Shown here: in pieces, positions 4,638 through 56,978 of the stretch | Position numbering within the stretch: position 1 is the first letter of the stretch | Layout: the number at the start of each line of letters is the position of its first letter | DNA from: an uncultured bacterium | GTDB lineage: Bacteria; Oederibacteriota; JAAXVQ01; JAUVAV01 | Direction: 5' to 3' | DNA length: 64,000 nucleotides | Assembly (NCBI GenBank): GCA_963710755.1 | Contig: CAVQBK010000013.1 | Coordinates: 384,001 to 448,000, forward strand | The notes under the pieces: model-generated | Databases searched by the model: none | Told to the model about the DNA's origin: nothing | The model's input: the letters and a program-made list of their open reading frames with translations, nothing else | Program-made: the position numbers and the translations under genes

Positions 4638-4755
4638 GGGGTTGACATGTTGAACCCCTATTTGAATATACATTATACAAAAAGGACGCCGTCGGCAGCT
4701 TTGGCGAGTTGAATTATTGCTGACGCAGATTTTTTAAAAAGGACGTGAAGCCATC

Positions 4756-35258: not shown

Positions 35259-36544
35259 GATCCGCTTTCCTCCTGTTGCTTTTCCAGCATGACCACAAAG
35301 GCACCCACCAATTCAGGATCCAACTGGGTCCCGGCATTCCTTTTAAGTTCTTCCATGGCATCACGCCGGCTGATGGGAGCGCGGTGTTTTTGTTCCGAGG
35401 TCATGGCGTCAAAAGCATCGGCTACAGCCAGAATACGTGCGCCCAGGGGAATAGTCTTGCCTGACAGCCCCTGGGGATAACCCTTGCCGTCATAGCGTTC
35501 ATGATGATGCATCACCAAGGGCACGACCCCACGCAAGGCTTCGATTTGTTTCAAGATGTCGGCGCCCACCAACGTATGCTGCTTCATTGTTTCGTATTCT
35601 TCCGCCGTCAATTTCCCGGTCTTTTCTAAAATCACGTCGGGTACGGCAATATGACCGATGTTCTGGACCTGACCGGCCAGATGAATGTTAGCGATCTCTT
35701 CCTGATCCAGACCGATATGTACCGCCAAATTAGCCGCATATTCCGATACGCGCTGGTCATGGCCGCCTACAAATTTGTCGCGGTGCTCCAGTGCTTTGGC
35801 CATGGCGCGCAGCACGCCGATGTAAAGTTCTTTTAAATTATCGGCCATTTCATTGAATGCATTAGCCAAAATGGCCAGCTCGCTTTTACCCTTGATATTA
35901 ATTTTAAAATTAAGATTGCCGGCGCCGATTTCATGCACCCCGCGCATCAATTCGCTCACAGGCTTCATCATAATATTGGTGACAAAAACCGCGATGATAA
36001 TGCCAATCAATAATAAGGCCGCGGCAATGGACAATGATTCCCGAAAGGCTTGACCGACATGCTCGGTAACCGATTTCTGAGACATGCCCACATGCACACT
36101 GCCTATTTGAACGCCGTTACGAAGATTGATGGGAATAGCAATATCGGTTAGGGCATGGTCATCCTGGTTCTTGAAAGATTGAATGAGAATCTCTTCATTG
36201 GTGAGCGGTCTTAAGCCAACCGGTTCCACGTACTCCTTACCTATATTGGCGATCTTGCTATGGGCCAAAATTTTTCCCTTATCATCGAGAATCATGGCAT
36301 AAGCCACGCCCTCGTTTTTCATAACACTGGTGACGAAAGTGGCCAAAGATAACCGATCGCCGTTGATTAAGGCATCGGTGCTGATGGTGGCCAAATTCCG
36401 GGTAATGGTGGATCCTCTTCTGGTCATTTCCCGCAGCAGGACTTCCCTTTCCTGCTGGGTGAAAAAATAAGTGGAGCCAAAAACTGTAACCGCTACCAGG
36501 GTAACGGTCATCAGGATGAATTGAAATTTCAGACCAGCACGCAT
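35255..36544 (-). CDS. Membrane HD-GYP-domain protein with degenerate HD motif (TM, Cache-like sensor, TM, HAMP, HD-GYP)
   Basis: ATG 36544 after GGAGG. HHERYDGKGYP and ARILAVADAFDAM are present, but LHDIGK is replaced by VQNIGH. Confidence 0.88.
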   Translation of the reverse strand: MRAGLKFQFILMTVTLVAVTVFGSTYFFTQQEREVLLREMTRRGSTITRNLATISTDALINGDRLSLATFVTSVMKNEGVAYAMILDDKGKILAHSKIANIGKEYVEPVGLRPLTNEEILIQSFKNQDDHALTDIAIPINLRNGVQIGSVHVGMSQKSVTEHVGQAFRESLSIAAALLLIGIIIAVFVTNIMMKPVSELMRGVHEIGAGNLNFKINIKGKSELAILANAFNEMADNLKELYIGVLRAMAKALEHRDKFVGGHDQRVSEYAANLAVHIGLDQEEIANIHLAGQVQNIGHIAVPDVILEKTGKLTAEEYETMKQHTLVGADILKQIEALRGVVPLVMHHHERYDGKGYPQGLSGKTIPLGARILAVADAFDAMTSEQKHRAPISRRDAMEELKRNAGTQLDPELVGAFVVMLEKQQEESGS

Positions 36545-36719
36545 AGGAACCTCCGAGACTCCCACCAAAAATGGACCACCGCAAGGCTGGCAGCAGTCCA
36601 CCTTAGGGAGCATATGGTTATTTATTTATTCATTCTATATCAGCTAAACGTTGCCCTGCCTGCTGGGCGACAGGCGTCATGGGATTGATTAATTATCGGC
36701 AGGTTTACAATTGGTCGAC

Positions 36720-40899: not shown

Positions 40900-41903
40900 C
40901 GTACCACGACCAGGGCGCCACGATAATGTACCTGCCCAGCAGTGATTAGATATAGGTAGGCCCCCGGTGCCACCAAACGGTCCTGCTCATCTCGACCGTT
41001 CCATCGGGCACTGTAAAAAGGACTGCTGCCCTGAAGGGACAAGGTTTTGATCAGCCGTCCATTGAGATTATAAGTAGCAACCTTGATCTCATCCGGTTTG
41101 AGATCGGATTCAAAAGTAACTTGCCACTGTTGCTGATAAGAGGCTCCTGGCGCAAAGGTCCGGCGATTGGTCTGTACGTTAACCAGCGGCCCCTGAACCG
41201 GATTCGAGGTCTCTGTGCTCGTGGGCGTAGAGGTCATGGTGACTATGGGTGTGGGGCTAAAGGTAGGCGTGATCGTCAACGTGGGCGTCACCGTCGCGCT
41301 GGGGGAACCGGTTGGCGTTACGGTATAGGTAGCACTGATGGTGGCCGTGGCCGAAATTGTGGGTGTGGACGTCATGGTGACAAAAGGTGTAGGGCTAAAG
41401 GTAGACGTGATGGTCAAGGTAGGTGTCACCGTCGCGCTGGGCGTGTACGTTACTGACTCCGTGGGGGTAGTGGTTGGTGTAGCTGTTGGTGTTATGGTAG
41501 CACTAGGTGTAAAGGTCACGGATTCCGTAGGTGTTTCAGTGAGGGTGTCGGTAAGGGTAACGGATGGCGTTGGTGTATAGGTGACGGATTCCGTGGGCGT
41601 TTCGGTAGGCGTAACCGTATAAGTAATCGTAGCTGTAGGCGTGAACGTAGCTGATTCCGTTGGCGTTTCGGTAGGAGTCTCCGTTAAAGTGATGGTACTG
41701 GTTGGCGTAAAAGTAGCAGATTCCGTTAGGGTTTGCGTGAGCGTGGCCGTAAGCGTAATGGTTGGAGTAGGTGTAAAGGTTGCTGATTCTGTTGGCGTTT
41801 CAGTGAAGGTAGGGGTGGGGGATTCACTCCAGACAAGATTACCCTGCACCAGACCCAGGGTCAATGCCATCATTCCGATTGCCAGCCCTTGTTTATACGT
41901 CAC
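40896..41903 (-). CDS. Secreted Thr/Pro-stalk protein with C-terminal FlgD-Ig/T9SS-CTD-like domain
   Basis: Signal peptide; about 200 aa of alternating T-x; C-terminal RTFAP...YNLNGRLIKTL...WNGRDEQDRLVAPGAYLY...GALVVVR. Confidence 0.82.
   Translation of the reverse strand: MTYKQGLAIGMMALTLGLVQGNLVWSESPTPTFTETPTESATFTPTPTITLTATLTQTLTESATFTPTSTITLTETPTETPTESATFTPTATITYTVTPTETPTESVTYTPTPSVTLTDTLTETPTESVTFTPSATITPTATPTTTPTESVTYTPSATVTPTLTITSTFSPTPFVTMTSTPTISATATISATYTVTPTGSPSATVTPTLTITPTFSPTPIVTMTSTPTSTETSNPVQGPLVNVQTNRRTFAPGASYQQQWQVTFESDLKPDEIKVATYNLNGRLIKTLSLQGSSPFYSARWNGRDEQDRLVAPGAYLYLITAGQVHYRGALVVVR
41430..41795 (-). repeat. 66-bp (22-aa) tandem repeat inside the Thr/Pro stalk, about 5.5 copies
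   Basis: TES codons recur at 41785, 41719, 41653, 41587, 41521 and 41455 (66-nt spacing). Confidence 0.8.
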
Positions 41904-42761: not shown

Positions 42762-45056
42762 TTAGACCTCGTCCTCCATATCGTCTCTAAGATCATTCTC
42801 GATTTGGGCAATGATTTTGACATCTGCAATGGCTGTTGCATTTTTTAAAATACGTTTAACCATGGCCCGCGATTGTGCCCTGCTTATCGGCCGGCCGGTC
42901 GCCTGGGTTTGTTCTTGTTCCATGCGAAATAAAGCTTGGCCTAGAAATCCCATCTCTGCTTTAAAAATGGCCATGGCCCGTATAAGAAAATGATCGGGTG
43001 AATTTCCGGCAGAACCCACTTGCCCAGGCGGTACGGTCTCCGGGACGGTTGTGCTGGCCTCATCTTCCTCAATGCCCTCTCCAATGGAGACAGCTTCAGA
43101 CAGCGAAGATGGCTGTAGCGTCCCAGCCTTTCCAACATCAGTTCCGCTGGGGGCTGCGGAGGCCATCGATGATGGACGCAGCGTCCCTTTCCTTCCAATA
43201 TCTTCTCCAGTCGGGGCTGCAGAGGGCATCGAAGATGGCCGCAGCGTCCCAGCCTTTCCAACATCTTCTCCAGTCGGGGCTGCCGAAGGCGGTCTTGGCG
43301 CCTGAGGCGTCCCTTTCCCATCTATATCCTTACCGGTCGGGGCTGCGGAGGCCATCGAAGTTGGACGAGGCGTCCCAGCCTTTCCAACATCAGTTCCACT
43401 GGGGGCTGCGGAGGCCATCGATGATGGACGCAGCGTCCCTTTCCTTCCAATATCTTCTCCAGTCGGGGCTGCGGAGGCCATCGAAGTTGGACGAGGCGTC
43501 CCAGCCTTTCCAACATCTTCTCCAGTCGGGGCTGCCGAAGGCGGTCTTGGCGCCTGAGGCGTCCCTTTCCCATCTATATCCTTACCGGTCGGGGCTGCGG
43601 AGGCCATCGATGATGGACGCAGCGTCCCTTTCCTTCCAATATCTTCTCCAGTTGGGGCTGCCGAAGGCGGTCTTGGCGCCTGAGGCGTCCCTTTCCCATC
43701 TATATCCTTACCGGTCGGGGCTGCGGAGGCCATCGAAGATGGACGCAGCGTCCCTTTCCTTCCAATATCTTCTCCAGTCGGGGCTGCCGAAGGCGGTCTT
43801 GGCGCCTGAGGCGTCCCTTTCCCATCTATATCCTTACCGGTCGGGGCTGCGGAGGCCATCGAAGTTGGACGAAGCGTCCCAGCCTTTCCAACATCAGTTC
43901 CGCTGGGGGCTGCGGAGGCCATCGAAGTTGGACGAAGCGTCCCAGCCTTTCCAACATCTTCTCCAGTCGGGGCTGCCGAAGAGGTCACTTTCTTTCCGCT
44001 ATTTTTATCGGTCGACACCACATCTTGTTGGCTTTGATTAACCTGTTTGAGATCAGATTCAGCCGGTGTGCTTTCAAGGATCAGGTCATCGGCTTTTAAG
44101 CTTAAGGTTTCTTCAGCAATTTCTCTAATTACACTTTGGGCTGGCGAGCGTTTTTCCTGTTGCACCACTGGTTCACGCTTCAACAACGGCTTGACGGCGA
44201 TCGGCTTTTTTTTGCCTTCAATAGATTCCTGAGCTTGTAATACACGCTCAATGGTCACTGGCATGGGCAGATGGCTGTCAATAATATCCATTAAAATTTC
44301 CCAGCCCCCGCTGACCCAGTCCAGCACTTTCTGAAGATTGGTGATCAAAATGCCATTGTCCTGAGAATATCCGCCAAAGAATCGACCTTGGTAAAAAACC
44401 ACAATGGCCAATTCGATATCCGACCCTTTGCGGGTATAAGATTGCCGGTCCAGGGCATCTTCCAACTCGGACGGTGCGATGGCGCCAATCTCCACCAAAG
44501 CATCCCCCAGTCTTTTGGCGCCGGCTTGGGATAGTTGCAGGCGTACAGCCTCTTTAAGTTGTTCCGGAGAGATTTTGTTCATGCGCAGCAGAAGGTTACC
44601 GAGACGCGTATTATTGCGAATGCGGTAAAAACGGAGAACGCCGGAGAATTTTTTTTGAGCCAGGGTCTCCACTAATTTGTGCATATCGAGGAAGGAGCTT
44701 TCCAGTTCGCGTTGTACGGCCGGCGGTGTTTCCAGAGCACTAAGGGCTTCAATGATTTCTGAGGGCAAGTTATAAATATTGATGACTGTATCGCGTTCTC
44801 TGGTTTCGCTCTGGAGAAAATGACGGATGATTTGTTCTTTGGTGAGATTTAATTCATCAGTGCCTTCATAGTAACAGGACAATACCCGTCCTTGAACAAA
44901 AACAATCAGGCCTTTTTCATGCAAGGCCAGGATTTCCACATAACCGCTGAAAGACTCCTCCATCAATCCTCGGATCAAGGCAGTCATATCAGTGGCACGA
45001 TAATTTAAGTTTTCAGCTTTTACTTCGCCTTTAGGCAAGTAAAGTAAGGGCCACAA
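42762..45056 (-). CDS. Cytoplasmic protein: tandem PATAN/DUF2226-like repeats, inserted MshEN module, 21-aa tandem-repeat linker, small helical C-terminal domain
   Basis: Two FSG-containing repeats (FSGYVEI...VFVQG; FSGVLRF...VFYQG); RLGNLLL...RLGDALV...LDRQ; 14 SAAP repeats. Confidence 0.7.
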   Translation of the reverse strand: MWPLLYLPKGEVKAENLNYRATDMTALIRGLMEESFSGYVEILALHEKGLIVFVQGRVLSCYYEGTDELNLTKEQIIRHFLQSETRERDTVINIYNLPSEIIEALSALETPPAVQRELESSFLDMHKLVETLAQKKFSGVLRFYRIRNNTRLGNLLLRMNKISPEQLKEAVRLQLSQAGAKRLGDALVEIGAIAPSELEDALDRQSYTRKGSDIELAIVVFYQGRFFGGYSQDNGILITNLQKVLDWVSGGWEILMDIIDSHLPMPVTIERVLQAQESIEGKKKPIAVKPLLKREPVVQQEKRSPAQSVIREIAEETLSLKADDLILESTPAESDLKQVNQSQQDVVSTDKNSGKKVTSSAAPTGEDVGKAGTLRPTSMASAAPSGTDVGKAGTLRPTSMASAAPTGKDIDGKGTPQAPRPPSAAPTGEDIGRKGTLRPSSMASAAPTGKDIDGKGTPQAPRPPSAAPTGEDIGRKGTLRPSSMASAAPTGKDIDGKGTPQAPRPPSAAPTGEDVGKAGTPRPTSMASAAPTGEDIGRKGTLRPSSMASAAPSGTDVGKAGTPRPTSMASAAPTGKDIDGKGTPQAPRPPSAAPTGEDVGKAGTLRPSSMPSAAPTGEDIGRKGTLRPSSMASAAPSGTDVGKAGTLQPSSLSEAVSIGEGIEEDEASTTVPETVPPGQVGSAGNSPDHFLIRAMAIFKAEMGFLGQALFRMEQEQTQATGRPISRAQSRAMVKRILKNATAIADVKIIAQIENDLRDDMEDEV
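43098..43979 (-). repeat. Intragenic 63-bp tandem repeat, 14 copies, four unit types
   Basis: Units begin SAAP(T/S)G; order A B C D C D C A D B C A D B; copies nearly identical at DNA level. Confidence 0.95.
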
Positions 45057-45284: not shown

Positions 45285-48200
45285 TTAGGCAGCTGTATTG
45301 AGAGAACGCAGCAAACGTTGTTGGCGTTTGTGCATCTTTTCCTCGTCATTGGCAAGCAAATGATGGAGGCGTCGGCTCAAGCTTGGATTTGCCCATAACC
45401 ATCGAGGCATGGAGATAAATCCCACCCCTTTAATATAACGATTTTGACGCAGGGCTTTAAGATCACCCAACATCAGCATCAGTAGCTGAACCCCTTGCTG
45501 CCGGCTTCGGACGTCCTTAGCCGCCTCCAAAACATCCAGCCAGTCGCTGACAAAGCTGTCAAGCTGCCCCCATTCTTCCCATTGTTTCAGATCATTTTTC
45601 TGAAGCCAAAAGCTTTGGGCCAGCGTGCGTACTAGCGGCGTGAGCGGCTGACTTCCAAAAAAGAGGTGCAACTTTGACTGCCAAGTCCCTGCGCCGTAAA
45701 TCAGAAGCAATTGCCGGCGCCAGTGGATGAAGCTGCCGCCAAGACGGCTGGTTTGCCAATTCAAGCGTAACCGGGTCACCCAGCTTAAGTTGGAGCGGTC
45801 GGCGGCAAGTGTGATGTTCAAGTGTTGATAGTCTAAAATAGCTTTAATGACGCCTTTTTTATCAGCTGCCTTGTCAAGTGATGGATCAAGGCTGACTTTA
45901 TCAATAGGTGCTTTCCGGCCAGGTTTAAAAGCTTGATCCCAAATCATTAACCCTACTGCGACAATGCCTGTACCTATAAGTACCGCGCCTAAAACAGGCG
46001 CTGTGACTGCTGTACCAAAAGCCAAGGTTATAATTCCTGCCACCGCCAGAAGCAATGAAGAAAGACCCAACAACAATTGTGGTGACGCGATGAATCCGTC
46101 TTGTTTTTTTGTTTTCCCATTCAATTGGTTATTATTCATGCTGGGGACAATCCCATTTTGAATCATCTGATCAATAAGTATTTCCTTGATTCGCCGGAAA
46201 GTTGCCTCTTGTTTGTTTTTCCAAAAAGCTTGCGGAAAGGTAACTGCTTCAAATGTTCTTGGTAAAGACCGCTCTTGCTCATGGCGAAACAGTACCGTTG
46301 TTTCCACATCCCAAAGAGGGGTCAATTCGGTGAGCTCTTGCGGCGTACCCATAATGATAACCCGTTTATCCTTGAATAGTTTAAAATATTCCTTGACCAA
46401 GGATTTGCCTGCCTGCAAATCGGCAATTTTATCGATTATTTCAGTTGGTACCTGCTGACTTAAATTATTTAATTCCCCATACAAATCGTGCGGTGTGATT
46501 TGCCGGATATCCCTCGATTTAACATCCCCCTTATCGAGGTCCGATGTTTTTTCAATCTTAACCTTAATGGCCAAGGCAATTAGTTTAAAAACATCTTTAA
46601 TATTGATGGCGTGAGCACTGTGTAGGGAAGCCTGATTTTTTATAAAGTCTCGCATTGACTGTTCGTCATCGGAATCAACTTCATTAAAGGCAATCTTCAC
46701 TGACCAAGGAATGGTATCCAAAACATTTTGTTTCATTATGGTGTAGGCCGGCCTGGTACTGTATTCGCCAATCATATCGGGCAAAACCGTAATTTCAACC
46801 GTGTACGGCCTGTCATCAATTATACTTGGTGCAATTTTCAAAGTATATTTATAATAATCAGCAAACTGTTCAGGATTAAGCGGGTCAGTTTGTATCTTCA
46901 TGCTGATCAATTTGCCGTGCGTATCCCTTTGACCATCGATATGAAAGAACTTCTTTTCAACTTGACATTGATCGCCAGAACAAAAAGTTTCTTCCAAAGC
47001 TTGAATGGTTTTTTGAAATTCCTCCCAATTTCCCGTTACCAGCCGGAGACCAATAACATCATCAGTAATAGCATTGATGGCTTTCTCAGTATAAATTTTT
47101 GGATCTCCAAGCGGAGGCGGATTTTCCGCCCACGGCTTATATCGAGTCCATTTGGTTCTATTCGCCATATTCATAAGAATGGAAAAGGCTTCTTTTATCC
47201 TGCCTTCTATGGTCACTGAGTTCAAATCGTGGTCGTGCAACATGGTACTTAAGCGATTTTGATTATCGACCAAATTTCTTTTCCTACTGGGATAATCAAC
47301 TGCTGTTGTAATAGCACTTAAAACCACATGGGCGTCGATTTCAGGATGGTCTTCAAAAAATTGTTGTTGTATGGCTTGGCTATTTTGAGTTCCATACAAT
47401 TGATTTAAGATTTCCAAAATAGCCGTTGTTTCCTGCTCCAGCTTTGTTCCAGAAGCATGCCTCTCCTGTAAAGCGATAGTTTTGGCATACCAAAAGGCTG
47501 TGGCCAATTGTTCGGGTTCCATATTTTTAAGTGTTTCCATATTGTCCTGCAATAAAAATACCAATTTAGGAATTCTCTGACGCCGCTGCGCAGGGTTCAT
47601 GTTATAAACCTGTTCAATGGTGCTTAAAAACCAATCTTGAAATAATGCTTCATATCTATTCATAAGAATGGAGGCTCTGGGAATCCCCATGGCCATTTCC
47701 TTGTCCCATTGGGTTGTTACATCCTTTTCCGCCGCCTTTTGCATTCCCAATAGGTTTAGGGAGGCACGTTTCGCTTTTATCACTAAATGGCTGCTTTGGC
47801 GGCGAGCTTCTCGAAGTGCTTCCAAAGCAGCAGCCTTAAGGTCTGGTAATTGCTTGGTTTCAAAACCGCCAGCAATGCCAAAAGAAATCCGTGGTACAGG
47901 GATATAATTATTATTGAATCCAGGGATATCCCCGATTTGTCCTTGGACATCCGCGAGGGTTTGATTTTGTTCAAGAAATCTATTGCTTTTTAAATAACTT
48001 TCTATTTTCTTCATTTGTACATAATTTTTAATATCAACCATCACTTGAGCCAAAGGTTTGCCATTAACGCTCTCACCAATACCAATAACAGCATTTTCCT
48101 CGAATATGGTTATCCCGCCAAGGAGTTTCTCCCATTCTTTCCGTTCTTGCGCGCTCAGTTTTTGGGGGATGGCAAAGGTCATCAACCGGTAACGGTGGTG

Positions 48201-51200
48201 GATATCAGCATGCAACTGAAATTGGATATCTTGTAAGAGTTCTTGAACCTTCTTAACCGAATTAGAATTTACGGCAAAGCCAATATACCCGTGCTCACTG
48301 TTTTCTGCATAAACGGTAACAGTTTTCTGCTGACTCTTGGTCTGCGTGGTCAACTCGTTAATTTTTTTCAAAACAATCTTATAGTAGTCTTGGGCGATTT
48401 CTTCCCCATATAGGTCCTTGATCAAGGGAAAGGAATCGATTTCTATGATGGTATAAATCACCTTCTCCGATCTTTTCAACAACTTGCGCAATTTAGCTTC
48501 CGCATTTGCTCTAGCCTGCAAAGGAGGTGTTGCTGTTCCAGCAACATTTTTCATGGTTCCCAAGGCGGCAAAGCTTATAGTGCCAAAAAGAATATTGTTT
48601 AACCACGCTGTCATATCTGGTGTTTGGGCAGCCATTTGTTTAAGCGTTTCAGTTGCTGTGGCGGCTGCGGCCGGGCCTGGTAAAACCATAAGGCTGGCTA
48701 GCACACTAATAATTAATATACCCACAATGGCTGGACCAATAGGTTTAAATGGTGCCACCAGGTGACTTACAACTCCTGGTAAATTCAGTAATAGCTGCCA
48801 AATCCGCTCAAACGGATTTTTCAGATGATGGCCTTGGGCCGTGAGCAGTGGACGGAGGCGGAGTACATTGACCGCACTGTGAAGCATGACCGATAAAGCA
48901 AACCCAACGATCGCGCTGAAGGGCGTTAGTCCCAGGAGAAGTGCCGGTAAGATCATGACAGCACCTAATAATGTACCCACAGCGCTTAATCCCAACTTTC
49001 CCCCAAAACTGCGGCCAGGATGAAGCATGGCAAAGACCACAGCATTGATGCTGATGAGCCCCGCCAAAGTGGGCACAGCTACTCCAAAAAAGAGACCCAA
49101 CACTATCGGCGTAAAGATGACCGTTTCCCAAACAGGCGCGCGGAGAAATGGTTCCCCAAGCCAGGCTTTGAGCCGCCCCAAACGGCTGGAAGGCTTTTGG
49201 TCAAAACTGTTTAAAAAAGCGGTAAAGAAAATAACTGCTGGTTGAGGTTGTTGGGTCAAAAGGTTGTTTATTAAATTCCCAACCATTCTACTGACTTCAT
49301 GGGCATTTAAGATGCGGTTGCTTTTAATTTCTTTACGCTCATTAAAGGACATACTAGGAAGTTTTTCAAAAGGAATTTCCAAGTAAGTCGCAAATATTTT
49401 CATAAAGGTTTCACCCAGAGAACCATTCCATGTGGAAGGCTGTTGTAAGATATCCAGTGAGGCTTTGAGCAAGCGGGAATGAATAAGTTCCATAAATGTC
49501 CGGCGCTGGGCCAATTCTTTTTGGGCTGTCTTTTTCTTGGATCCCAAAATATTCTGGATCTCTATCGAGGTCGTCTCACCTGAAATCCGCTCTTTCAACA
49601 AGGTCAGCGCTTGCTGGAAATAAACTTCCTGAGCCCTGGCGCCCTCATGAACTTCTTTGGCCAAGGTCTCTAGCCGGCCAACCACGCTGGCGGCCTGTTC
49701 AAAACTTAAAGCAGACTCGATATTCTCCCCTGACAATTTGTAGCGTTCTCCAAAGACTCGCATAAAACGATCGGCCAACCATTCGTGGAGCAAACCGGTC
49801 ATGAAATGCCAATAGCGGTCGACCCCCCTATTTTCCAAAATATTATGTCCGTGTTCATGAGCCAAAAGATAAAATAATATTTCCGCTTGATTGGTGGCTT
49901 TGCGTAAAAGTTGACCACCCATTTGATAAGCACTGTTGAAGGTATTAGAGTAAGGTTCTGCCCGGGCCTGCTTGATCTTGCGGGCAATGGAAAAGACGTC
50001 CTGTTGACTTATTACCGGCTGATCAAGGTGCTGGCTATAGTTGATCGCATCCAACCAGGAGGCTGTGGCAAATATCTGGGCTTTGAGATCAGCCAGCGGC
50101 TCCTGCCCCGCATAAACCTGAGCTACCCACTGTTGGTTATTATTGATCAGATGCTGGATATAACGCTCAATCATAGACTTACCGTGGTGGCCATTTAATC
50201 CCTGTAGAAGACCATTAAACTCTTTCGATTTTTTCGCTCGTTCGGTCTCATCCATCTGGTTCCATGCCGGCTGCAGGTTCAGATACTCCAACATGGCCAT
50301 CAATCTTAATTCAAAATAGTCTACTTTTTTACTAGGATCCCGGGGCTGCTGCTGATCCATAATAAGGTCTTTAAGCAAGGCTTCCCGGCCAAGTGCAGCC
50401 TGCCGTTCGAGGATAAGTAATGCTATATTTTTATCATACCCTTCATGCTCCCCACGCAAATAAGCTTTAACCGTGTTAACCTCTGCCGAAGGGTAGAATA
50501 GGTTTTTTACCGTTTTTTTTATTTTGGATTGTTTTGTAAGATCGTCAATATCGCGGCCAACCCAGGCGTTAATGAAATTATCTTCTATCCCCGGAAGACT
50601 GATGATCTTGGCCGCAGTATTAATAACATTGGTTGCATAGGATAAAGAAGGATTCTGGAGTGCAAAGGTCAAGACGGTTGACAACTTACTGTCTGAAAAT
50701 GGTTGTTGGACTCCCGTAAAATCTGCACAATAGCCTAACAAGGCCAGTCTCCTTGTGACGGCTTCACTTTCATTATGCAGAGCGTTTTCCAGCGCGTTGA
50801 TCGACTCGTTATAAGAAGTTTGGTCAGAAAAGTATTTTTCCAGTACAGACTTAATACTACTTCGGTAATAGGTTGACGATTTAAGGGTCTTCCGCAATTG
50901 TCGGAACTGATCATGTTGTTTGGCAAGATTCAAAGCCAATGTTAATTCTTCCAAACGCAGGAAATGAGCTCGCCAATCGGTTTGTTGGTAAACAAAGTTT
51001 TCCCAACGTTTCCGCCGTTGATTGTCCATCCCGTAAAATGCTGGTGCGTTTTCTACCATGGCTTGCAACAGCCGCTCTTGATATTGCGCAATGGCAAGGC
51101 GTCTTTCGGCACTTTTTTCGACTTTTTTCAAATCGGCGAATTGTCCATACAAATTACCGGCCACCGTCACCATTTTTTTATCTACATCAGAGACTGATAA

Positions 51201-54200
51201 GATATTATTTGAAGCTGACAAAGTTGTCACTAAGGACGCCTTATAGTACAAATTACCGGTTCTATCCGTTTCCACCATGTTTACTATTGGTTCCATAAAA
51301 GTCCCACGGCGATCCAAACGGTTAAAAACAGCTACTAAAGGCAGTACATTTTTCTGATAGCGGCCCTGAATAAAAGCTTGGATCTTAGGCGTCATCATTT
51401 TTAAAAACGAAGTTAAAAAATCATTTTGATTTTCAGCACCATTGTTCACCTTGGTTAGATAGCGTTCTATATAAGCTAAATCATCCAGATCTCTCACTGA
51501 TAAATCAGCATCTCGCTCCAGCAACCTTGCGCTCACCTCTGACACAACGAGCATCCCCAGCTTTTGGGTTTCCAGCTCAGCTAAAAGGCTCCAGATCATT
51601 TCTTGAACTGAATAATTTTCAGCAACAGGGCCGGTTAAAAAGTCAGCCAATTCTTGCCTGACGATTTCCAGGTTAAACCCTTCAAGCTGTTTTATCAAGC
51701 GCCGGGCTTGCGCCTTGGCTTCTTCGCGCTTGAGCGGTAATTTTTCCAAAGAATCAAGATCTAGTTTTTTTACAGCACTAAAAAGCTGGCTGATGATTTG
51801 ACGCTGGACCGATTCGTCCAGACGCTGCAGGTTCTTTTCTTTTTGTAATTCCATGATCTCCAAGGGCACCGTAGTTTCCGGTGCCACCAAGGCTGAAAAC
51901 CAGCTCAAGCCGCTTGAAGTATATTTTTGATCAGGAAATAGATAAATCCTCAGCGTGCCTGTGGTAGGTTCCAAGTGAGCCAAACTTCCAATTTCTTTAG
52001 CCACCTCTTGTTTAGACTGGTCGAGGTGGGCTTTGGCTTTCAGATTCACAAACTCAATCTTTTTTAATTGGTAGGATTGACCTTCAATGGTGACCTCCAA
52101 GCCTTCCGGCTGGGACACCATGGTAGTGAAATGGTCTTTTAAGCGGGTGATATCTTGCGGCGAAGTGGGTGAACTGCGATTTGTTTTAGCTTCTTGTTCT
52201 GCTGCTATCAGACCTACGCTAAGATAGGCTTCTGCAGCCATGGTCGACTCCGGCTTATACCCCAGATAATCGGCAAACTGCTTCACTTCTTCTTGAGACC
52301 AATCTTTGAAAAAGCTTCCCACCAACTGCTCGCTAGTTTTAGTCTGAGATAATAATCGTGACCATATGGTTTTTGATCTAAGATAACCCTTTACCTGGTT
52401 GATGAGCGCCAGCTTCGATCTCGACCAACTTTCATCTGACCTCATACCCATAGTCATGCCCACCATGCCAACCATGGCCAACGTCACTTCTTGGAAACCC
52501 GGGGCATGATTGAGCACCCCTGCTGCCCCATGATGGGCCAGTTCCATCAGGCCGGCAGTCGCCGGTCCGGGTAAAAATATTCCAAAAGCCATGCCAAATA
52601 GGGTCGTGGCTAAAATGACGGCCATGACGCCCAGCCAAAGGCGGCCATTAGGCGAAGCCTGTTGATAAAGGGCCGATTGATCAAGTTTTGATGTCATTTG
52701 CGTATAAAGCCACTGACTTCCCGGCCAGGCAAGCATGAATGCCAGTAAGAACGATTTTAAAGTTGCCCCGGTAAAGTCATTTATTTTAACTACATTCAAA
52801 GCTGTTGTTTTTTTAATATTTTTAGTTTTAACTTCCTCACTGACAGCTTTCTGGATAGGTGCAATGGGAAGCAGCCCAATTAAACCTTTGCGGGTGGTGA
52901 AAGCCCGATAATTGTCCTGATCTTTTGGAGTAAATTTCCCAGGCAAATAGTGAACTATCTTGTTTGTCTTTCTTTCCGGCAGAACAGCAGCCTTATCCAC
53001 GCCGGCAAACATGGCACCTATTTGGGCCTCATAGGTATTCATCTCCATCCAGGTAATACGAGGTTCCATGGCCAACCCCTCAGCCTGAATGGATACATTT
53101 AATTCCCTTTCCAATTGCCCTCTAAAAGTTTCAATGACCGTTGCGGTCTCAGCGTGGGGATCATTCAATTCTTTTAATATTGATAAAAGGTCATTTTTTC
53201 CCCGGTTATCAAGCTTGGTCAATAAATGGGGCAATGCAATAAGGTCGTCAGCAGCGCCGTGGCCATAAATGGTATTAATCGTCTTAAAGCCTTTGAGTTG
53301 ATCTCCCAAATGTTCAATTCGATAATCAGGTTCCACGATAAACAAATAGGTTTTCGTACGAGAAATAGCCACAATTTCCATCTTATCAGGACCACGGGAT
53401 GGCGGTGCCCGTCCTACTAAAATAAGGACTTCGGGAAGACCGGCTGGCCCTGGCTTTCGGTACTTTTCTAGATACTCCTGAACTTCAGCATAGAGGCCGG
53501 CATGGGAAAATTGCCAGGGGGCATGGGGATCAAACTTGGGAACCGATGGGCGGTCAAGGGTATCGGACATTTCCGTTTTTTGGGAGACTATGGCCCAAAA
53601 GGTTTTCAGACCCAAGACAAGACGGCTAAAAAATTTCTTGCCCGCCAAATTTACGTTTTCTAAACTTTCCATGACAGGTGACATGGGCACCTGCTCGTCC
53701 TTATGGAGGGCGAATGTTTCTTGTTCTGCGATTAACTGTTCCATTATTTCCGGTTTTAATAAATTCCCATGATCCTCTTTTTCAACCTCCGGAATATCCA
53801 CCCCCAGGACCACTTGGTTCCTCCCCTGGTCCTTAGCCTTTTCCAAATACTCATCGGCCCATTTCAGCAGGTCCGTCGCCATATGCTCAGCATTCAAGTT
53901 CTTATGCTGGTCTTGGGGATTAAAAATCATGGCACCAATGGAAATAGTAGGTGTGGTGATATAATCCTTCCTTAAATGCTGAATATCCACCGCACTATTC
54001 ATGGCCGATGCAACCTCTGATTTGGCTTGATCATCCAAACCGGGTTCGCTTCCCTCCACGGACTTCTTATTCAGTGCAACCAGTTGCTTGTAATAACTAA
54101 CGCTTTTCAGGTTGACCCCTTGCCCTAGACCGGCATTAATTTGGTTCTTTAATTGCTCTAGAATTTTGGTATTCGAACCGACTTTAACCAACAATCTGGG

Positions 54201-56918
54201 TCCATAAATGGGGTCATCAGCCAGGCGGGCAAAATGGTTGTCTTTTTTGTTCTTTGCGAGTTTGGTGATCGTTTCCTTTAATTTTTTCATTTGGTCATTG
54301 CCCAACACCAGGACAGAACCATCAGGATTCCTCAAATCAAAGGCTTTAAACTTCTCATGCATATTGACCATGACTTGTCGGCGAATAAAATTTAAAATCT
54401 TCTTTCGACTATCCCCATCCAATTGCCCTGGAATTAACAACATACCCTCATCGCCGCCATAGCGAATGACGGTAACTTCTTCACGGATGCCGGATGTTTT
54501 AAGTACGTCCGTCACCGGAGACATATGCGCCGCGCGGTGAACAAGTTCCAGCAAGTCATCCAGCAGAAAATCAGTCAGGGCTTTTCCAAAAAAATCATTA
54601 ATCCCTGACAATTTGTCCAGATCCGTGAAGGCCAGCGCAAAGGGCTCGCGGTTGGCAATATAGGCTTCAATTTTTTTCCGGCCCTGGTGAAGGGACAAGA
54701 CTCCGGGGATTTTGACCCGTCTTCCTTTTTGCGCAGCCTCGAACAACCCCAAGGGCACCAATACCATCAACCAAAAGGGCCATTCCGGGAGCATGGCAAT
54801 TAACTGCTCATGCCACAATTCAGACCCCCAGAGTACCGAAGGAAACAAGAAAGCCATCACCATTATGGTTTTGGCCACACCGGCTAACCCGGACTTGCTC
54901 TCGTAGGTTTGCGCCAATTGCACCGCTGCTCGTTGCCACCGCTTCAAAATTGTTAACATCCATGACCTTAAGTCTTTCACTTGACCGTAAATGGCCTCTC
55001 GCCGTTGCAGCAGATCAAATTTTTCTACTTGAGTACGTACAATTTGATTCCATTGCTTCCATTGGCTTACCCAAGGGCTTTGGGCATCTCCCTCTAAAAG
55101 GCCATCCCACTTATTTTTATCCACCACTTTGAAAGTGCCTTCCTCCAAACGGACACCTGCTTGGCCGGGGGTCAACAGTTCAAATTGAACCTTGTTCTCC
55201 AAACTTTCCCCAACCACTGCCGCTGAGGGATGACCCGGTTTCTTTTGGTCACGACGTAGGACCAGCACAAAGTTTTCCCCATCAATTTGTGCAGCATAAA
55301 CTACGCCTCGTGCGCTGCTTAATAGCGGCTTAGAAGACAACTGCAACGAGCCCTTCAACCCCTTAACTTCAGCAAAGTGCTGCAAGGCCTCGTCTTGGTT
55401 GGCATTAGGGTGGTCAAACACCCGGTAAGCTCGGGATGTAATCCGGGTGATAAGGTCGAGGTACTTATTAAAAAGAGGGTCCGCAAAGCGTGTCCAGAGA
55501 TTAAAGAGGGTTTCTTTTTTGGAAAGCAGTTTTTCAATAGGTGATTGTTTGCCTTGCAGAAGTGAAAAGTAGGGATTGACTTGATCCAAAGCTGTAACCC
55601 GCGGCTTGAGGGTGACAAAGGAAATTCGATTGATTTTCAAAAGTGCTTCCACATAGGGCATGTGGAAACCACCGGTAATCATGACAGCCACAGCTTGGTG
55701 CTTCTGTTTCATTAGCGCATTTAAATTGTCCACAAACTTCTCGGACCGTCGATTGACCAATTGATAAAAAAATGCAGCTTGCTCTATCCGTTCTTCCAGA
55801 TCCAAGACATCGTCATAAAGCAAGGACGCCACCCCAACCCGCCGGGCCATATTCTCCAGGGCAGCCACAAAATGAGCTACCTTAAATTCAGCCCGATGCT
55901 TAAGAAAATAATTAAGCTGTACCGGGGAAGCGGTGATGTTGGTCATGGCTTCGATGATGTTGAGTTGTTCCTGGTAATGATCGAGCAAGCGTTGGTCTTC
56001 CGTCGTATAGATCGCTTCACGCAGGGCATGCTCCATCACCTGGGTCTGTTCCGCCACACCGTCCAGATCCTCGGGCTGTTTAGCCAATACCTTGCCCTCA
56101 GCAGCGTAGGCTAGTAACGATGTGGACGGACTATAATTGATTTTTAACTGTGATACCTGCTGCAGCAAAAAGCGAAGGTAGGCTTGCAGGGACTCTTTCC
56201 CCAGTTGATAAGCGGTCTTTTTTTCATCAAGCGTCAATAACGCCTGGTGATACACCTTTGGTTTAAGAGCATTAAGGACCGTGCGTAAATCTTCGCACCA
56301 GCCCTGGGTCTGGGCATTAAAAAACCGATGCAATACCGACGCGCTCTGATCATAAAGCGGCTTGGACTCAAGACCGTGCAACCGAAGACCTTGATCATTA
56401 ACTGCAGCCGCATATTCCGCACCGGTAATAAGACCGCGGCGCAGGAAATACTTACCCACCCGTTCACGCACCACCTCCACGGGAATGGCAGCCAGTGGGC
56501 TGACATCAATATCCTGACTGGCGCCTTCCACGGCCACTAACCTCAGATCATGCTTTTCAGAAAGGGTGTGAATCAGGTCAGCAATATTGCTTTGAACTTC
56601 GTAATTGCAGTGGAAATCTTCTATGCATACCACGGTTACGGGGCTGCCAGCTTGATAACTGCTGGTTACTCTGGCCAGATCTTGCGAAAAAGTAAGTTTT
56701 TTGCCTTGGATTTCAAAGGGTGTGTAGCCATAAACCCCCGGGACTTCCACTGGATAGGGTGCTGCTGTAAAGGCAAAACCAAGGTAAGGAAATAGAAAAG
56801 AAAGAGATACAAACAAGGCTATAATTTTCACCCCCAAAGGGGACCAAGATTGTATCCTTTGAAATAAACGAGCCTGCTGATGGTGGTTGTCACTGCCAAC
56901 CGAATAGTTCCTGATCAT
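45285..56918 (-). CDS. Giant (3877 aa) multi-domain membrane-associated protein with GGDEF, HExxH peptidase, CPBP-like and RelA/SpoT-like modules
   Basis: Single 11.6-kb ORF; EDFHCNYEVQ/VAVEGA/TGGFH, FTDLDKLSGIND...RYGGDEG...KAKDQGRNQV, HEHGH...HEWLAD, EGRIKEAFSI...DDVIGLRLV; several TM clusters. Confidence 0.85.
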   Translation of the reverse strand: MIRNYSVGSDNHHQQARLFQRIQSWSPLGVKIIALFVSLSFLFPYLGFAFTAAPYPVEVPGVYGYTPFEIQGKKLTFSQDLARVTSSYQAGSPVTVVCIEDFHCNYEVQSNIADLIHTLSEKHDLRLVAVEGASQDIDVSPLAAIPVEVVRERVGKYFLRRGLITGAEYAAAVNDQGLRLHGLESKPLYDQSASVLHRFFNAQTQGWCEDLRTVLNALKPKVYHQALLTLDEKKTAYQLGKESLQAYLRFLLQQVSQLKINYSPSTSLLAYAAEGKVLAKQPEDLDGVAEQTQVMEHALREAIYTTEDQRLLDHYQEQLNIIEAMTNITASPVQLNYFLKHRAEFKVAHFVAALENMARRVGVASLLYDDVLDLEERIEQAAFFYQLVNRRSEKFVDNLNALMKQKHQAVAVMITGGFHMPYVEALLKINRISFVTLKPRVTALDQVNPYFSLLQGKQSPIEKLLSKKETLFNLWTRFADPLFNKYLDLITRITSRAYRVFDHPNANQDEALQHFAEVKGLKGSLQLSSKPLLSSARGVVYAAQIDGENFVLVLRRDQKKPGHPSAAVVGESLENKVQFELLTPGQAGVRLEEGTFKVVDKNKWDGLLEGDAQSPWVSQWKQWNQIVRTQVEKFDLLQRREAIYGQVKDLRSWMLTILKRWQRAAVQLAQTYESKSGLAGVAKTIMVMAFLFPSVLWGSELWHEQLIAMLPEWPFWLMVLVPLGLFEAAQKGRRVKIPGVLSLHQGRKKIEAYIANREPFALAFTDLDKLSGINDFFGKALTDFLLDDLLELVHRAAHMSPVTDVLKTSGIREEVTVIRYGGDEGMLLIPGQLDGDSRKKILNFIRRQVMVNMHEKFKAFDLRNPDGSVLVLGNDQMKKLKETITKLAKNKKDNHFARLADDPIYGPRLLVKVGSNTKILEQLKNQINAGLGQGVNLKSVSYYKQLVALNKKSVEGSEPGLDDQAKSEVASAMNSAVDIQHLRKDYITTPTISIGAMIFNPQDQHKNLNAEHMATDLLKWADEYLEKAKDQGRNQVVLGVDIPEVEKEDHGNLLKPEIMEQLIAEQETFALHKDEQVPMSPVMESLENVNLAGKKFFSRLVLGLKTFWAIVSQKTEMSDTLDRPSVPKFDPHAPWQFSHAGLYAEVQEYLEKYRKPGPAGLPEVLILVGRAPPSRGPDKMEIVAISRTKTYLFIVEPDYRIEHLGDQLKGFKTINTIYGHGAADDLIALPHLLTKLDNRGKNDLLSILKELNDPHAETATVIETFRGQLERELNVSIQAEGLAMEPRITWMEMNTYEAQIGAMFAGVDKAAVLPERKTNKIVHYLPGKFTPKDQDNYRAFTTRKGLIGLLPIAPIQKAVSEEVKTKNIKKTTALNVVKINDFTGATLKSFLLAFMLAWPGSQWLYTQMTSKLDQSALYQQASPNGRLWLGVMAVILATTLFGMAFGIFLPGPATAGLMELAHHGAAGVLNHAPGFQEVTLAMVGMVGMTMGMRSDESWSRSKLALINQVKGYLRSKTIWSRLLSQTKTSEQLVGSFFKDWSQEEVKQFADYLGYKPESTMAAEAYLSVGLIAAEQEAKTNRSSPTSPQDITRLKDHFTTMVSQPEGLEVTIEGQSYQLKKIEFVNLKAKAHLDQSKQEVAKEIGSLAHLEPTTGTLRIYLFPDQKYTSSGLSWFSALVAPETTVPLEIMELQKEKNLQRLDESVQRQIISQLFSAVKKLDLDSLEKLPLKREEAKAQARRLIKQLEGFNLEIVRQELADFLTGPVAENYSVQEMIWSLLAELETQKLGMLVVSEVSARLLERDADLSVRDLDDLAYIERYLTKVNNGAENQNDFLTSFLKMMTPKIQAFIQGRYQKNVLPLVAVFNRLDRRGTFMEPIVNMVETDRTGNLYYKASLVTTLSASNNILSVSDVDKKMVTVAGNLYGQFADLKKVEKSAERRLAIAQYQERLLQAMVENAPAFYGMDNQRRKRWENFVYQQTDWRAHFLRLEELTLALNLAKQHDQFRQLRKTLKSSTYYRSSIKSVLEKYFSDQTSYNESINALENALHNESEAVTRRLALLGYCADFTGVQQPFSDSKLSTVLTFALQNPSLSYATNVINTAAKIISLPGIEDNFINAWVGRDIDDLTKQSKIKKTVKNLFYPSAEVNTVKAYLRGEHEGYDKNIALLILERQAALGREALLKDLIMDQQQPRDPSKKVDYFELRLMAMLEYLNLQPAWNQMDETERAKKSKEFNGLLQGLNGHHGKSMIERYIQHLINNNQQWVAQVYAGQEPLADLKAQIFATASWLDAINYSQHLDQPVISQQDVFSIARKIKQARAEPYSNTFNSAYQMGGQLLRKATNQAEILFYLLAHEHGHNILENRGVDRYWHFMTGLLHEWLADRFMRVFGERYKLSGENIESALSFEQAASVVGRLETLAKEVHEGARAQEVYFQQALTLLKERISGETTSIEIQNILGSKKKTAQKELAQRRTFMELIHSRLLKASLDILQQPSTWNGSLGETFMKIFATYLEIPFEKLPSMSFNERKEIKSNRILNAHEVSRMVGNLINNLLTQQPQPAVIFFTAFLNSFDQKPSSRLGRLKAWLGEPFLRAPVWETVIFTPIVLGLFFGVAVPTLAGLISINAVVFAMLHPGRSFGGKLGLSAVGTLLGAVMILPALLLGLTPFSAIVGFALSVMLHSAVNVLRLRPLLTAQGHHLKNPFERIWQLLLNLPGVVSHLVAPFKPIGPAIVGILIISVLASLMVLPGPAAAATATETLKQMAAQTPDMTAWLNNILFGTISFAALGTMKNVAGTATPPLQARANAEAKLRKLLKRSEKVIYTIIEIDSFPLIKDLYGEEIAQDYYKIVLKKINELTTQTKSQQKTVTVYAENSEHGYIGFAVNSNSVKKVQELLQDIQFQLHADIHHRYRLMTFAIPQKLSAQERKEWEKLLGGITIFEENAVIGIGESVNGKPLAQVMVDIKNYVQMKKIESYLKSNRFLEQNQTLADVQGQIGDIPGFNNNYIPVPRISFGIAGGFETKQLPDLKAAALEALREARRQSSHLVIKAKRASLNLLGMQKAAEKDVTTQWDKEMAMGIPRASILMNRYEALFQDWFLSTIEQVYNMNPAQRRQRIPKLVFLLQDNMETLKNMEPEQLATAFWYAKTIALQERHASGTKLEQETTAILEILNQLYGTQNSQAIQQQFFEDHPEIDAHVVLSAITTAVDYPSRKRNLVDNQNRLSTMLHDHDLNSVTIEGRIKEAFSILMNMANRTKWTRYKPWAENPPPLGDPKIYTEKAINAITDDVIGLRLVTGNWEEFQKTIQALEETFCSGDQCQVEKKFFHIDGQRDTHGKLISMKIQTDPLNPEQFADYYKYTLKIAPSIIDDRPYTVEITVLPDMIGEYSTRPAYTIMKQNVLDTIPWSVKIAFNEVDSDDEQSMRDFIKNQASLHSAHAINIKDVFKLIALAIKVKIEKTSDLDKGDVKSRDIRQITPHDLYGELNNLSQQVPTEIIDKIADLQAGKSLVKEYFKLFKDKRVIIMGTPQELTELTPLWDVETTVLFRHEQERSLPRTFEAVTFPQAFWKNKQEATFRRIKEILIDQMIQNGIVPSMNNNQLNGKTKKQDGFIASPQLLLGLSSLLLAVAGIITLAFGTAVTAPVLGAVLIGTGIVAVGLMIWDQAFKPGRKAPIDKVSLDPSLDKAADKKGVIKAILDYQHLNITLAADRSNLSWVTRLRLNWQTSRLGGSFIHWRRQLLLIYGAGTWQSKLHLFFGSQPLTPLVRTLAQSFWLQKNDLKQWEEWGQLDSFVSDWLDVLEAAKDVRSRQQGVQLLMLMLGDLKALRQNRYIKGVGFISMPRWLWANPSLSRRLHHLLANDEEKMHKRQQRLLRSLNTAA

Positions 56919-56942: not shown

Positions 56943-56978
56943 CTGGTATGACTATACCAGAGGATTTCCCATTTGCAA
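56943..56978 (-). promoter_or_regulatory. Promoter of the giant gene with an inverted repeat overlapping the -10
   Basis: TTGCAA-16 nt-(TGG)TATAGT; CTGGTAT-N4-ATACCAG inverted repeat at 56943-56960. Confidence 0.5.

Follow-up and report, generated by a model that had tools for sequence, protein, structure and literature searches.

How should one read a single open reading frame (ORF) of 11.6 kb that strings nucleotide-signalling enzymes behind an export signal? The question is raised by a 64,000-nucleotide stretch of DNA from an uncultured bacterium of the Oederibacteriota (contig CAVQBK010000013.1, positions 384,001 to 448,000; the whole stretch is called the window below), which encodes a protein of 3877 amino acids (aa). 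An original prediction, made from the letters of the window, described a modular giant protein and suggested that its head and tail deliver a swappable payload into another cell, as in MARTX toxins. The frame is indeed uninterrupted by any stop codon, and the oddity of cytoplasm-type nucleotide enzymes behind a classical signal peptide is real. We read the ORF, with belief and doubt about evenly balanced, as belonging to a large, so far unnamed superfamily of modular giant envelope proteins. Sequence comparison shows three constant parts in the family, namely a signal peptide, a head of ~420 aa and a basic C-terminus ending in [AS]-A, and between head and tail it shows helix-bounded blocks that were gained, lost and shuffled. 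The product may well be a modular enzyme array of the inner membrane whose head is exported, rather than a delivered toxin; for this topology and function, too, the arguments seem to us to weigh about equally for and against.

45285..56918, minus strand: whole ORF (P0001), a single open frame of 3877 aa plus stop codon
56772..56918, minus strand: signal-peptide-like N-terminus, aa 1-49, with a basic n-region, a 12-aa hydrophobic core and the c-region P-Y-L-G-F-A|F
55509..56756, minus strand: conserved head, aa 55-470, an alpha/beta core with a ~220-aa helical insert and the putative active site D101, H103, E131, E184, R391 and H419
54891..55478, minus strand: post-head region, aa 481-676, within the conserved N-terminal module; profile matches of relatives reach ~600-640

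The export-like N-terminus that had been proposed is borne out by its details and by its relatives. The sequence LFPYLGFA|F places Pro at -6, Gly at -3 and Ala at -1, a pattern common to the paralogues. These start with a basic stretch and a hydrophobic core of ~12 residues, followed by Pro near -6 and by (S/T)-W-A and then F-(E/D); a regular expression for an (S/T/G)-(W/F)-A-F-(E/D)-type motif matches 136 of 160 stored family proteins. The paralogue c-region fits the established -3/-1 rule of signal peptidase I, and a classical Sec-type signal peptide is the natural reading.

The conserved head was likewise anticipated, and it recurs far beyond this locus. A head profile (aa 55-480) detects 33 stretches in 31 open frames of the bacterium's own 3.44-Mb genome, at 30-43% identity. 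These frames range from 619 to 9,465 aa and total 80,562 aa, or 7.0% of the genome, and the head is present in 21 of the 34 genome ORFs of at least 2000 aa. Three of the copies (G04-G06) may be assembly variants, as their starts are near-identical and two of the three lie on 9-kb contigs. A search of 1.84 billion representative public sequences matched 6978 clusters at E<=1e-3, of which 4546 pass E<=1e-10 and 819 pass E<=1e-30; among the best 150 matches, the head is N-terminal in all, in proteins of 390-7768 aa. Within a set of 99 genomes of the phylum the head is carried by 15, comprising all 10 of one family (f1), all 4 of another (f2) and the window's genome; it was not found in any of the 84 genomes of other families. 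Carriers in this set hold several copies each, in frames of up to 13,678 aa. The nearest named records of the lineage are metagenome-assembled genomes of candidate division FCPU426, Firestonebacteria and Goldiibacteriota, and one distant head-bearing relative (P0012) is named as Omnitrophota. Public names of family members are either 'hypothetical' or taken from a single embedded domain. For at least ten paralogues, head identity to a foreign orthologue is 48-88%, versus 36-49% to the nearest paralogue in the same genome, so the copies are old and maintained (this count leaves out eight matches of >=99% identity that look foreign but are proteins of the genome itself).

What the head might do is suggested by its predicted structure. 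The model has a predicted local distance difference test (pLDDT) value of 85.9 and a predicted TM-score (pTM) of 0.82, and the best five Foldseek rows are all erythromycin-esterase-family entries. HopBA1, EreC, Bcr135-type proteins and ChaN are the top structural matches of the predicted parallel-beta core. In the model, each acid or His of the putative active site sits just after a predicted beta strand, and across 190 heads these residues are almost invariant (D101 in 187, H103 in 189, E131 in 190, and E184, R391 and H419 in 188 each). In the excerpted text of PMC6254334, the TIKI superfamily is defined by a parallel beta core, a set of two His and two Glu near strand ends and a conserved basic residue, and includes HopBA1, Bcr135, ChaN and the MARTX effector RRSP. 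The head has such a 2His/2Glu set and basic residue, a correspondence by order and position without superposition. Searches of tiles of the protein with PF01963, PF04187 and PF05139 gave no match at E<=10, and a PDB sequence search with the head profile returned nothing useful. Since no sequence family matches, the head is filed by fold and motif only, as a TIKI-like (TIKI/EreA/ChaN) domain that is no member of a named sequence family; we regard this model-based assignment as moderate. The acid-x-His, Glu, Arg, His set is shared with the TIKI/EreA-C/Bcr135-136/ChaN/TraB-PrgY/HopBA1/RRSP superfamily, among whose members the predicted core finds its top structural matches; unlike them, the window protein has a ~220-aa helical insert in its head, thousands of fused residues and no sequence-family match. 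Its layout of signal peptide, ecto-domain and membrane helix is presumably also that of TIKI and PrgY.

The opposite end of the chain is constant too.

45288..45923, minus strand: tail domain, aa 3666-3877, also the C-terminal end of P0002, P0014, P0016, P0018, P0019, P0020, P0023, P0029 and paralogue G01
45288..45341, minus strand: C-terminal signature ...KRQQRLLRSLNTAA-COOH, consensus R-R-R-x-x-R-[ST]-hydrophobic-x-[SQGN]-[AS]-A

The tail domain of ~215 aa occurs in the closest subgroup and in G01, always at the extreme end, in proteins of 1125-6244 aa. The window protein ends in LNTAA, as had been read from the sequence, and the wider family shares this kind of ending. An [AS]A end is found in 19 of 31 family ORFs versus 33 of 2141 other genome ORFs of at least 200 aa; with a basic cluster added, the counts are 17 of 31 versus 16 of 2141. 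An [ASG][AV] end closes 124 of 161 stored and local members of at least 1000 aa, versus 3 of 37 shorter and probably truncated ones, and all ten of ten distant giants sharing the head only end in [ASNQ]-A. The genome's transfer-messenger RNA (tmRNA) tag ends in LAA, and we infer that the family tail may resemble tags for AAA+ proteases. Binding of head to tail was considered too and dropped, since a signal peptide at one end and an arginine-rich tail at the other suggest opposite sides of the membrane for the two.

Two family members in the genome appear to have come apart between these ends.

C13:366376-383030, just upstream of the window start: G15 (3456 aa, head, no tail), followed by a 2119-aa tail ORF
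C3:409620-423666: G23 (1070 aa, head, no tail), followed by a 3630-aa tail ORF

In both, a tail-bearing headless ORF comes directly after the head-bearing one, which identifies them as split genes; frameshift, decay or assembly error could account for the splits. A further ORF, of 8125 aa, lies at C4:21455-45832 (plus strand), just upstream of paralogues G01 and G28; its start is signal-like, its C-terminus carries the family signature, and the head profile detects no head in it.

Between the constant ends the contents vary, as the original prediction had supposed in speaking of a swappable payload; the 31 paralogues, the C-terminal signature, the shuffled modules and a cassette indel between orthologues all bear this out. 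Of the 30 other paralogues, 14 contain Pfam families and 16 contain none. The families are HD, NUDIX, NTP_transferase, PPDK_N with PEP-utilizers, a transglutaminase core, GNAT, GH77, alpha-amylase, trehalose synthase/GT1, low-molecular-weight phosphatase, cytidylate kinase and, in G17, an M50-like stretch that scores 25.4 bits, below its cut-off of 27.2. As the genome also has stand-alone cmk, GH77 and PPDK genes and about ten canonical GGDEF genes, all scoring far higher, the embedded copies are extra and divergent.

The cassette indel is seen by comparison with the nearest relative, the 51% identical orthologue P0002 (2921 aa).

46119..48533, minus strand: cassette M3, aa 2796-3600, with a degenerate GGDEF-like stretch, a divergent RelA/SpoT-like region and a CMP-kinase-like remnant; absent from the orthologue
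45924..46118, minus strand: transmembrane hairpin, aa 3601-3665, missing from the orthologue along with M3

The two proteins are colinear over aa 4-2807 and the last 246 aa. In the pairwise alignment, P0002 lacks aa 1391-1431, aa 2794-3586 (M3, 793 aa) and aa 3599-3678 (a two-helix hairpin). The shorter form is also present in a genome of the same genus (G023, contig C30), beside the same downstream gene. Loss or gain of M3 with the hairpin keeps the number of helices even, and an even count places the tail on the same side of the membrane in both orthologues. Other blocks have moved as well. Copies of the GGDEF block (aa ~745-1310) sit further along the chain in four proteins of 5.6-6.2 thousand aa, at residues 3057-3524, 2686-3113, 4080-4644 and 3457-4028. 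The block of aa 1470-2748, which contains module M2, is found with 36% identity in P0013 (2043 aa), where it lies directly behind that protein's own head. Of the 98 other genomes in the phylum set, 5 have homologues of M3, each time within a longer frame (3848-12,659 aa), and a copy with 24% identity lies in a 6130-aa protein. One alignment of a short query with a 6130-aa protein came out scattered and was set aside.

Of these blocks, the GGDEF module is the best recognised.

54744..54890, minus strand: first hydrophobic region, aa 677-725, a strong and a weak segment, then KGRRVK
53805..54680, minus strand: GGDEF domain, aa 747-1038, with an insert at aa 853-963 and the motif R-Y-G-G-D-E-G at aa 819-825
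52749..53804, minus strand: rest of module M1, aa 1039-1390, which accompanies the GGDEF domain in P0018, P0019, P0020 and P0072
52419..52748, minus strand: hydrophobic cluster B, aa 1391-1500, with LPGPATAG directly after a transmembrane helix

PF00990 matches at 54.4 bits against a cut-off of 23.8, the sole Pfam family in a scan of the whole protein, and TIGR00254 at 41.9 bits against 37.4; the GGDEF domain that had been called from the letters is thus confirmed. The second GGDEF fragment of that earlier reading turns out to be the other half of the same domain. The two PF00990 stretches, aa 756-849 (profile positions 29-107) and aa 964-1035 (positions 97-161), are complementary, which makes them one GGDEF domain split by an insert of ~110 aa. 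The domain aligns to the solved cyclases 5m3c and 6zxm through DLD, IND, RYGGDEG and GRNQ, and all six homologous modules of relatives retain GGDE, as R-x-GGDE. A further candidate, aa 1151-1400, picked by eye for FKTINTIYGHG, was rejected as it gave no Pfam GGDEF match at E<=10. With sensor diguanylate cyclases the protein shares an exported N-terminal domain, a hydrophobic helix and a GGDEF domain ~20 aa later that keeps D-x-D, I-N-D, R-x-GGDE and GRNQ. It differs from them in having Gly for Phe as the motif's fifth residue, in the 110-aa insert and in the 2,800 residues that come after; nor is an RxxD I-site visible at what we take to be its usual place.

Beyond the GGDEF module lie two blocks with protease-like motifs.

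49149..52418, minus strand: module M2, aa 1501-2590, no Pfam match
49770..49859, minus strand: zincin-like motif H2354-E-H-G-H2358 ... E2379-W-L-A-D2383, in 7 of 7 aligned homologous blocks
48534..49148, minus strand: hydrophobic cluster C, aa 2591-2795, ~5-6 helices, with CPBP/Rce1-like E2598, F-x3-H2633 and H2680-x3-N2684 and with LPGPAAAA after a helix

The HExxH motif noticed earlier is HEHGH at aa 2354-2358, and it is kept in all seven homologous blocks together with an HExxAD 21 residues on, spacing included. HEHGH ... E2379-x3-D2383 forms a putative zincin pattern of the gluzincin type, for which thermolysin is presumably the fitting analogy. The zincin-like block has no Pfam or PDB sequence match, and a PDB sequence search with aa 2001-2600 returned nothing useful. 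The membrane segment that the original prediction described by its E, H and H-N residues stands as far as E2598, H2633 and H2680-x3-N2684 do lie in a transmembrane cluster; its resemblance to Rce1 is not significant by Pfam (PF02517, E 4.3-6.8, 7.5-8.1 bits versus 22.4). Within this cluster (aa 2594-2690), two of the three CPBP motifs are present (FAMLH for FxxxH and HSAVN for HxxxN), the first, EExxxR, only as W-E-T, and the CPBP-like region is conserved in P0002.

Cassette M3 follows cluster C. The third, degenerate GGDEF that had been proposed is visible as a weak stretch at aa 2802-2859 (17 bits, E 0.004-0.02), under the cut-off. The RelA/SpoT-like domain that had been placed after it fared in a mixed way. 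PF04607 gave no match in the protein tiles at E<=10, and in a six-frame search of the genome it found only the canonical gene on contig C5; profile-profile comparison gave weak support, as hhalign of 6 M3 homologues against 10 canonical RelA/SpoT domains reached a probability of 54.9% and an E value of 1.2e-4. At loose settings the alignment runs colinear through EIKILP/EIQIRT. The landmarks are GRIKEAFS at 3239, DDVIG at 3286 and VEITVLP at 3374; GR.K..FS, the Asp of DDV and a Glu are invariant in 6 of 6 homologues and E-I-x-[IV]-L-P is kept, and other residues have taken the place of the DxxGxR Arg and of Q and R in EIQIRT. M3 may carry a divergent RelA/SpoT-like nucleotidyltransferase region. 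A PDB sequence search with aa 2801-3600 returned a single chance-level match, and a word-index search with aa 2800-3620 returned only the query itself; with an M3 profile, the PDB search found only a CMP-kinase P-loop that is present in relatives and lost in the window protein. At the P-loop position of relatives the window protein reads NEVDSDDEQS in place of GPSGTGK, so its CMP-kinase partner domain has decayed. In five relatives (genomes G032, G031, G030, G019 and G024; loci L121-L125), an intact cytidylate-kinase P-loop, GPSGTGK, comes directly after the RelA/SpoT-like block. GC content at third codon positions (GC3) is 0.41 in M3, the lowest of the soluble blocks, and 0.35 in the adjoining hairpin; head and tail have values of 0.50 and 0.54.

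How could such a chain be arranged in the cell? Kyte-Doolittle hydropathy finds ~12 strongly hydrophobic helices, and their clusters separate the blocks, as had been described. In the arrangement that we favour, the signal peptide would export the head to the periplasm and the chain would be inserted co-translationally in the producer's inner membrane. The first helix would bring the chain back to the cytoplasm, and the GGDEF block, M2, M3 and the arginine-rich tail would lie inside, tethered by the helix clusters. So placed, the protein would serve as an enzyme and signalling array anchored in the membrane. Cyclic di-GMP (c-di-GMP) may be its first output, with the first third working as a sensor-cyclase-like unit of outside domain, membrane helix and GGDEF. 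The head would serve as an ecto-hydrolase or sensor, and the tail may be a tag for a cytoplasmic AAA+ protease or adaptor.

Several observations weigh against this membrane-array reading. Counts of Kyte-Doolittle segments vary between paralogues, and 37 of 154 family proteins of at least 1000 aa have no hydrophobic segment at aa 480-900. Around the first helix, Lys and Arg show no bias: of the 47 isolated helices, 18 are richer in them on the following side, 22 on the preceding side, and 7 are balanced. The proposed topology would also put cytoplasm-type domains of some members on the head side, such as LMWPc in G25 and a STAND-like P-loop in G09. The GGDEF halves are very divergent, scoring 22-24 bits versus 108-177 for nine canonical copies in the genome. 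As for the head, Foldseek E values of 0.011-0.051 and TM-scores of 0.20-0.27 allow a moderate assignment, no Pfam or NCBIfam family matches it, a PF01963 profile search of the genome gave 0 matches and so missed the heads, and hhalign of the head against one TraB-family sequence returned a probability of 0.2%.

The nearest known kind of protein is formed by the giants of the Omnitrophota, comprising the 'Archaeovorin' type (West-Roberts et al. 2023, bioRxiv 10.1101/2023.11.21.568195) and the 'multi-enzyme' class (Nielsen and Lui 2026, bioRxiv 10.64898/2026.06.07.730766). According to the excerpted text of these preprints, they too are long signal-peptide or transmembrane-rich chains of divergent cytoplasm-type enzymes (GGDEF, PPDK_N, NUDIX, PGM/PMM, methyltransferases) with N-terminal regions that lack an annotated domain. 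Compared with the giants described there, the window protein is far shorter, at 3.9 thousand aa, comes from a lineage nearest to FCPU426, Firestonebacteria and Goldiibacteriota and has no SecA_DEAD or C39 domain by Pfam. Tiki, ChaN, erythromycin esterase, TraB and a shared C-terminal signature are absent from the excerpted main text of either preprint, supplements aside.

The serious rival to a membrane-bound array is a bacterial polyprotein, and we judge it improbable but deserving of weight. In this account the ORF encodes a giant precursor from which separate enzymes, anchored in the membrane, are released by cleavage; this cleavage would fall to the TIKI-like head, to the protein's own zincin-like and CPBP-like modules and/or to signal peptidase I at internal signal-like helices, a set of candidates that we hold no more firmly than the account as a whole. 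Flavivirus-type polyproteins are threaded through the membrane in this way and are cut by signal peptidase and by their own proteases. The window protein resembles them in its soluble blocks that alternate with transmembrane helices, in its embedded protease-like modules and in two sites where a helix is followed by a PGPAxA pattern. The predicted head fold is of a protease/esterase type with an almost invariant catalytic set, and two further protease-like motifs follow in the same chain, to which G17 adds its sub-threshold M50-like stretch. The two sites, LPGPATAG (aa 1449-1456, window 52590-52613) and LPGPAAAA (aa 2746-2753, window 48699-48722), resemble signal-peptidase c-regions in sequence, lie right after helices and are kept in the orthologue. 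However, the strict PGPAxA-type pattern is found in only 2 of the 31 paralogues, at 3 sites, two of them in the window protein. A looser combination of internal hydrophobic core and P..A.A-like pattern occurs in 13 of 117 cases in the family versus 70 of 1488 in other ORFs, a modest enrichment.

A second candidate junction, R-[SAP]-E-x-R, is present in 6-11 copies in the distant head-bearing proteins P0006, P0007, P0009, P0010 and P0012. Such multiples are seen in 5 of 168 stored head-family proteins, with the first copy soon after the head. Across the 80,562 aa of the 31 paralogues, however, the motif occurs 3 times where 2.6 are expected, and it is absent from the window protein; no other short junction peptide is enriched in the paralogues. 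The likeness to viral polyproteins is thereby limited, as this is a cellular protein and a family-wide site was not found in the 31 paralogues. The head and tail are nonetheless common to motif-punctuated and helix-punctuated giants, which is what allows the two kinds to be joined. A more venturesome proposal, and one that we hold to be a little less probable still, is that head and tail define a single superfamily that unites transmembrane-punctuated FCPU426-like giants with R-S-E-x-R-punctuated Omnitrophota giants. Its members would be true polyproteins, each an 'operon in one ORF' that evolves by helix-bounded cassette exchange; the TIKI-like head would be a dedicated processing or maturation hydrolase, and the ...[AS]-A end a hand-off or turnover tag.

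The delivered effector chain of the original prediction, in which head and tail carry a payload into a host, prey or competitor, now looks distinctly unlikely. The window protein does share with MARTX a single large chain whose enzyme modules lie between constant ends around a variable middle, and cytoplasm-type enzymes do stand behind a classical signal peptide. In its size, divergence and partial decay the family resembles conflict systems. RRSP, a TIKI-family member by fold, is itself a MARTX effector (PMC6254334, excerpted text), and giants of related phyla have been proposed as predatory tools in the portion of bioRxiv 10.1101/2023.11.21.568195 cited above. Delivery itself finds no support, however. 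Pfam searches with the whole protein and its tiles turned up neither RTX or glycine-rich repeats nor a C80 cysteine protease domain, and a type I signal is lacking; the protein has a Sec signal instead, and its ~12 strongly hydrophobic helices would retain the chain in the producer's membrane. Housekeeping-type enzymes, not toxin families, make up the payloads, the TIKI-like part is the constant head and not a payload, and the genome's apparent surface proteins carry a different C-terminal domain. No conserved accessory, secretion or immunity-like gene recurs within 4 kb of the 31 copies, and PADLOC returned nothing significant (two chance-level rows, E 0.018 and 0.032). Polymorphic toxins offer no better model, given the constant C-terminus of the giant family and the lack of any recurrent small neighbour within those 4 kb.

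An artefact, whether a mis-assembly joining paralogues or a decaying, functionless pseudogene, is very improbable: the M2-M3 and M3-tail junctions are unique to the window's genome, GC3 drops in M3 and the hairpin, other family members are split and the contigs from public runs (150-579 nt) cross no junction, but 3877 codons run without a stop, an independent assembly shows the same order across aa 4-2807 and in the tail, blocks homologous to M3 and with its motifs kept lie in giant frames of 5 other genomes, both junctions fall in frame at helix clusters and catalytic-type residues are conserved. Those public DNA runs, three from one soil study, yielded identical contigs of the stated lengths only, and two apparent 'joints' in them are matches of only ~18 nt.

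The surroundings of the ORF were also surveyed.

56951..56978, minus strand: promoter-like site TTGCAA-16-(TG)TATAGT, a match to consensus only
42762-45056, minus strand: DUF4388 gene with a 764-aa product, 228 nt downstream of the giant ORF

The giant ORF has a GC content of 0.41-0.47 versus ~0.52 in its flanks, and the promoter-like site is housed upstream of it in an AT-rich spacer of ~500 nt with a GC content of 0.25. No common upstream motif was found across the family. The flanking genes are unrelated to the giant and encode an MrfA/Hrq1-type helicase, an extracytoplasmic function (ECF) sigma/anti-sigma pair, AIM24 and the DUF4388 protein. The last of these matches the MshE-related c-di-GMP-binding motif NF053729 (43.8 bits versus a cut-off of 38), and its gene contains ~13 tandem copies of a 63-nt unit, which encode 21-aa repeats. 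The order of giant and DUF4388 gene is also seen in same-genus genome G023, an adjacency observed within the genus only; four further genomes of the family have the DUF4388 gene without a detected M2 block of the giant alongside.

Elsewhere in the window, a Pro/Thr-rich repeat protein with a C-terminal FlgD_ig-like domain (40896-41903, minus strand) weakly matches the type A sorting domain of the type IX secretion system (TIGR04183, 17.7 bits versus 23). At least 20 other ORFs of at least 1000 aa in the genome end in a K-[IV]-x-[IV]-[IV]-K/R strand, which looks like a second C-terminal signature, distinct from that of the giant family. Two adjoining genes at 33696-36613 (minus strand) share similar N-terminal sensor regions and HAMP-like linkers; as read from their translations, one has an adenylate/guanylate-cyclase-like C-terminus and the other an HD-GYP-like one.

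Uncultured bacteria are known to encode giant multi-enzyme membrane proteins that still await an explanation, and the excerpted text of the two preprints on the Omnitrophota giants describes their N-termini as being without identifiable domains. Three searchable features, namely the signal peptide, a TIKI-like head with an intact residue set and an ...[AS]-A end, now tie together thousands of proteins across candidate phyla. The middle of these proteins is exchanged in helix-bounded cassettes, and the family takes up 7% of the window's genome. For annotators, the constant features provide a family marker where naming currently follows a single recognised domain, such as '(d)CMP kinase' for a protein of 6130 aa. 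They also bring the function of such giants within reach of bench tests.

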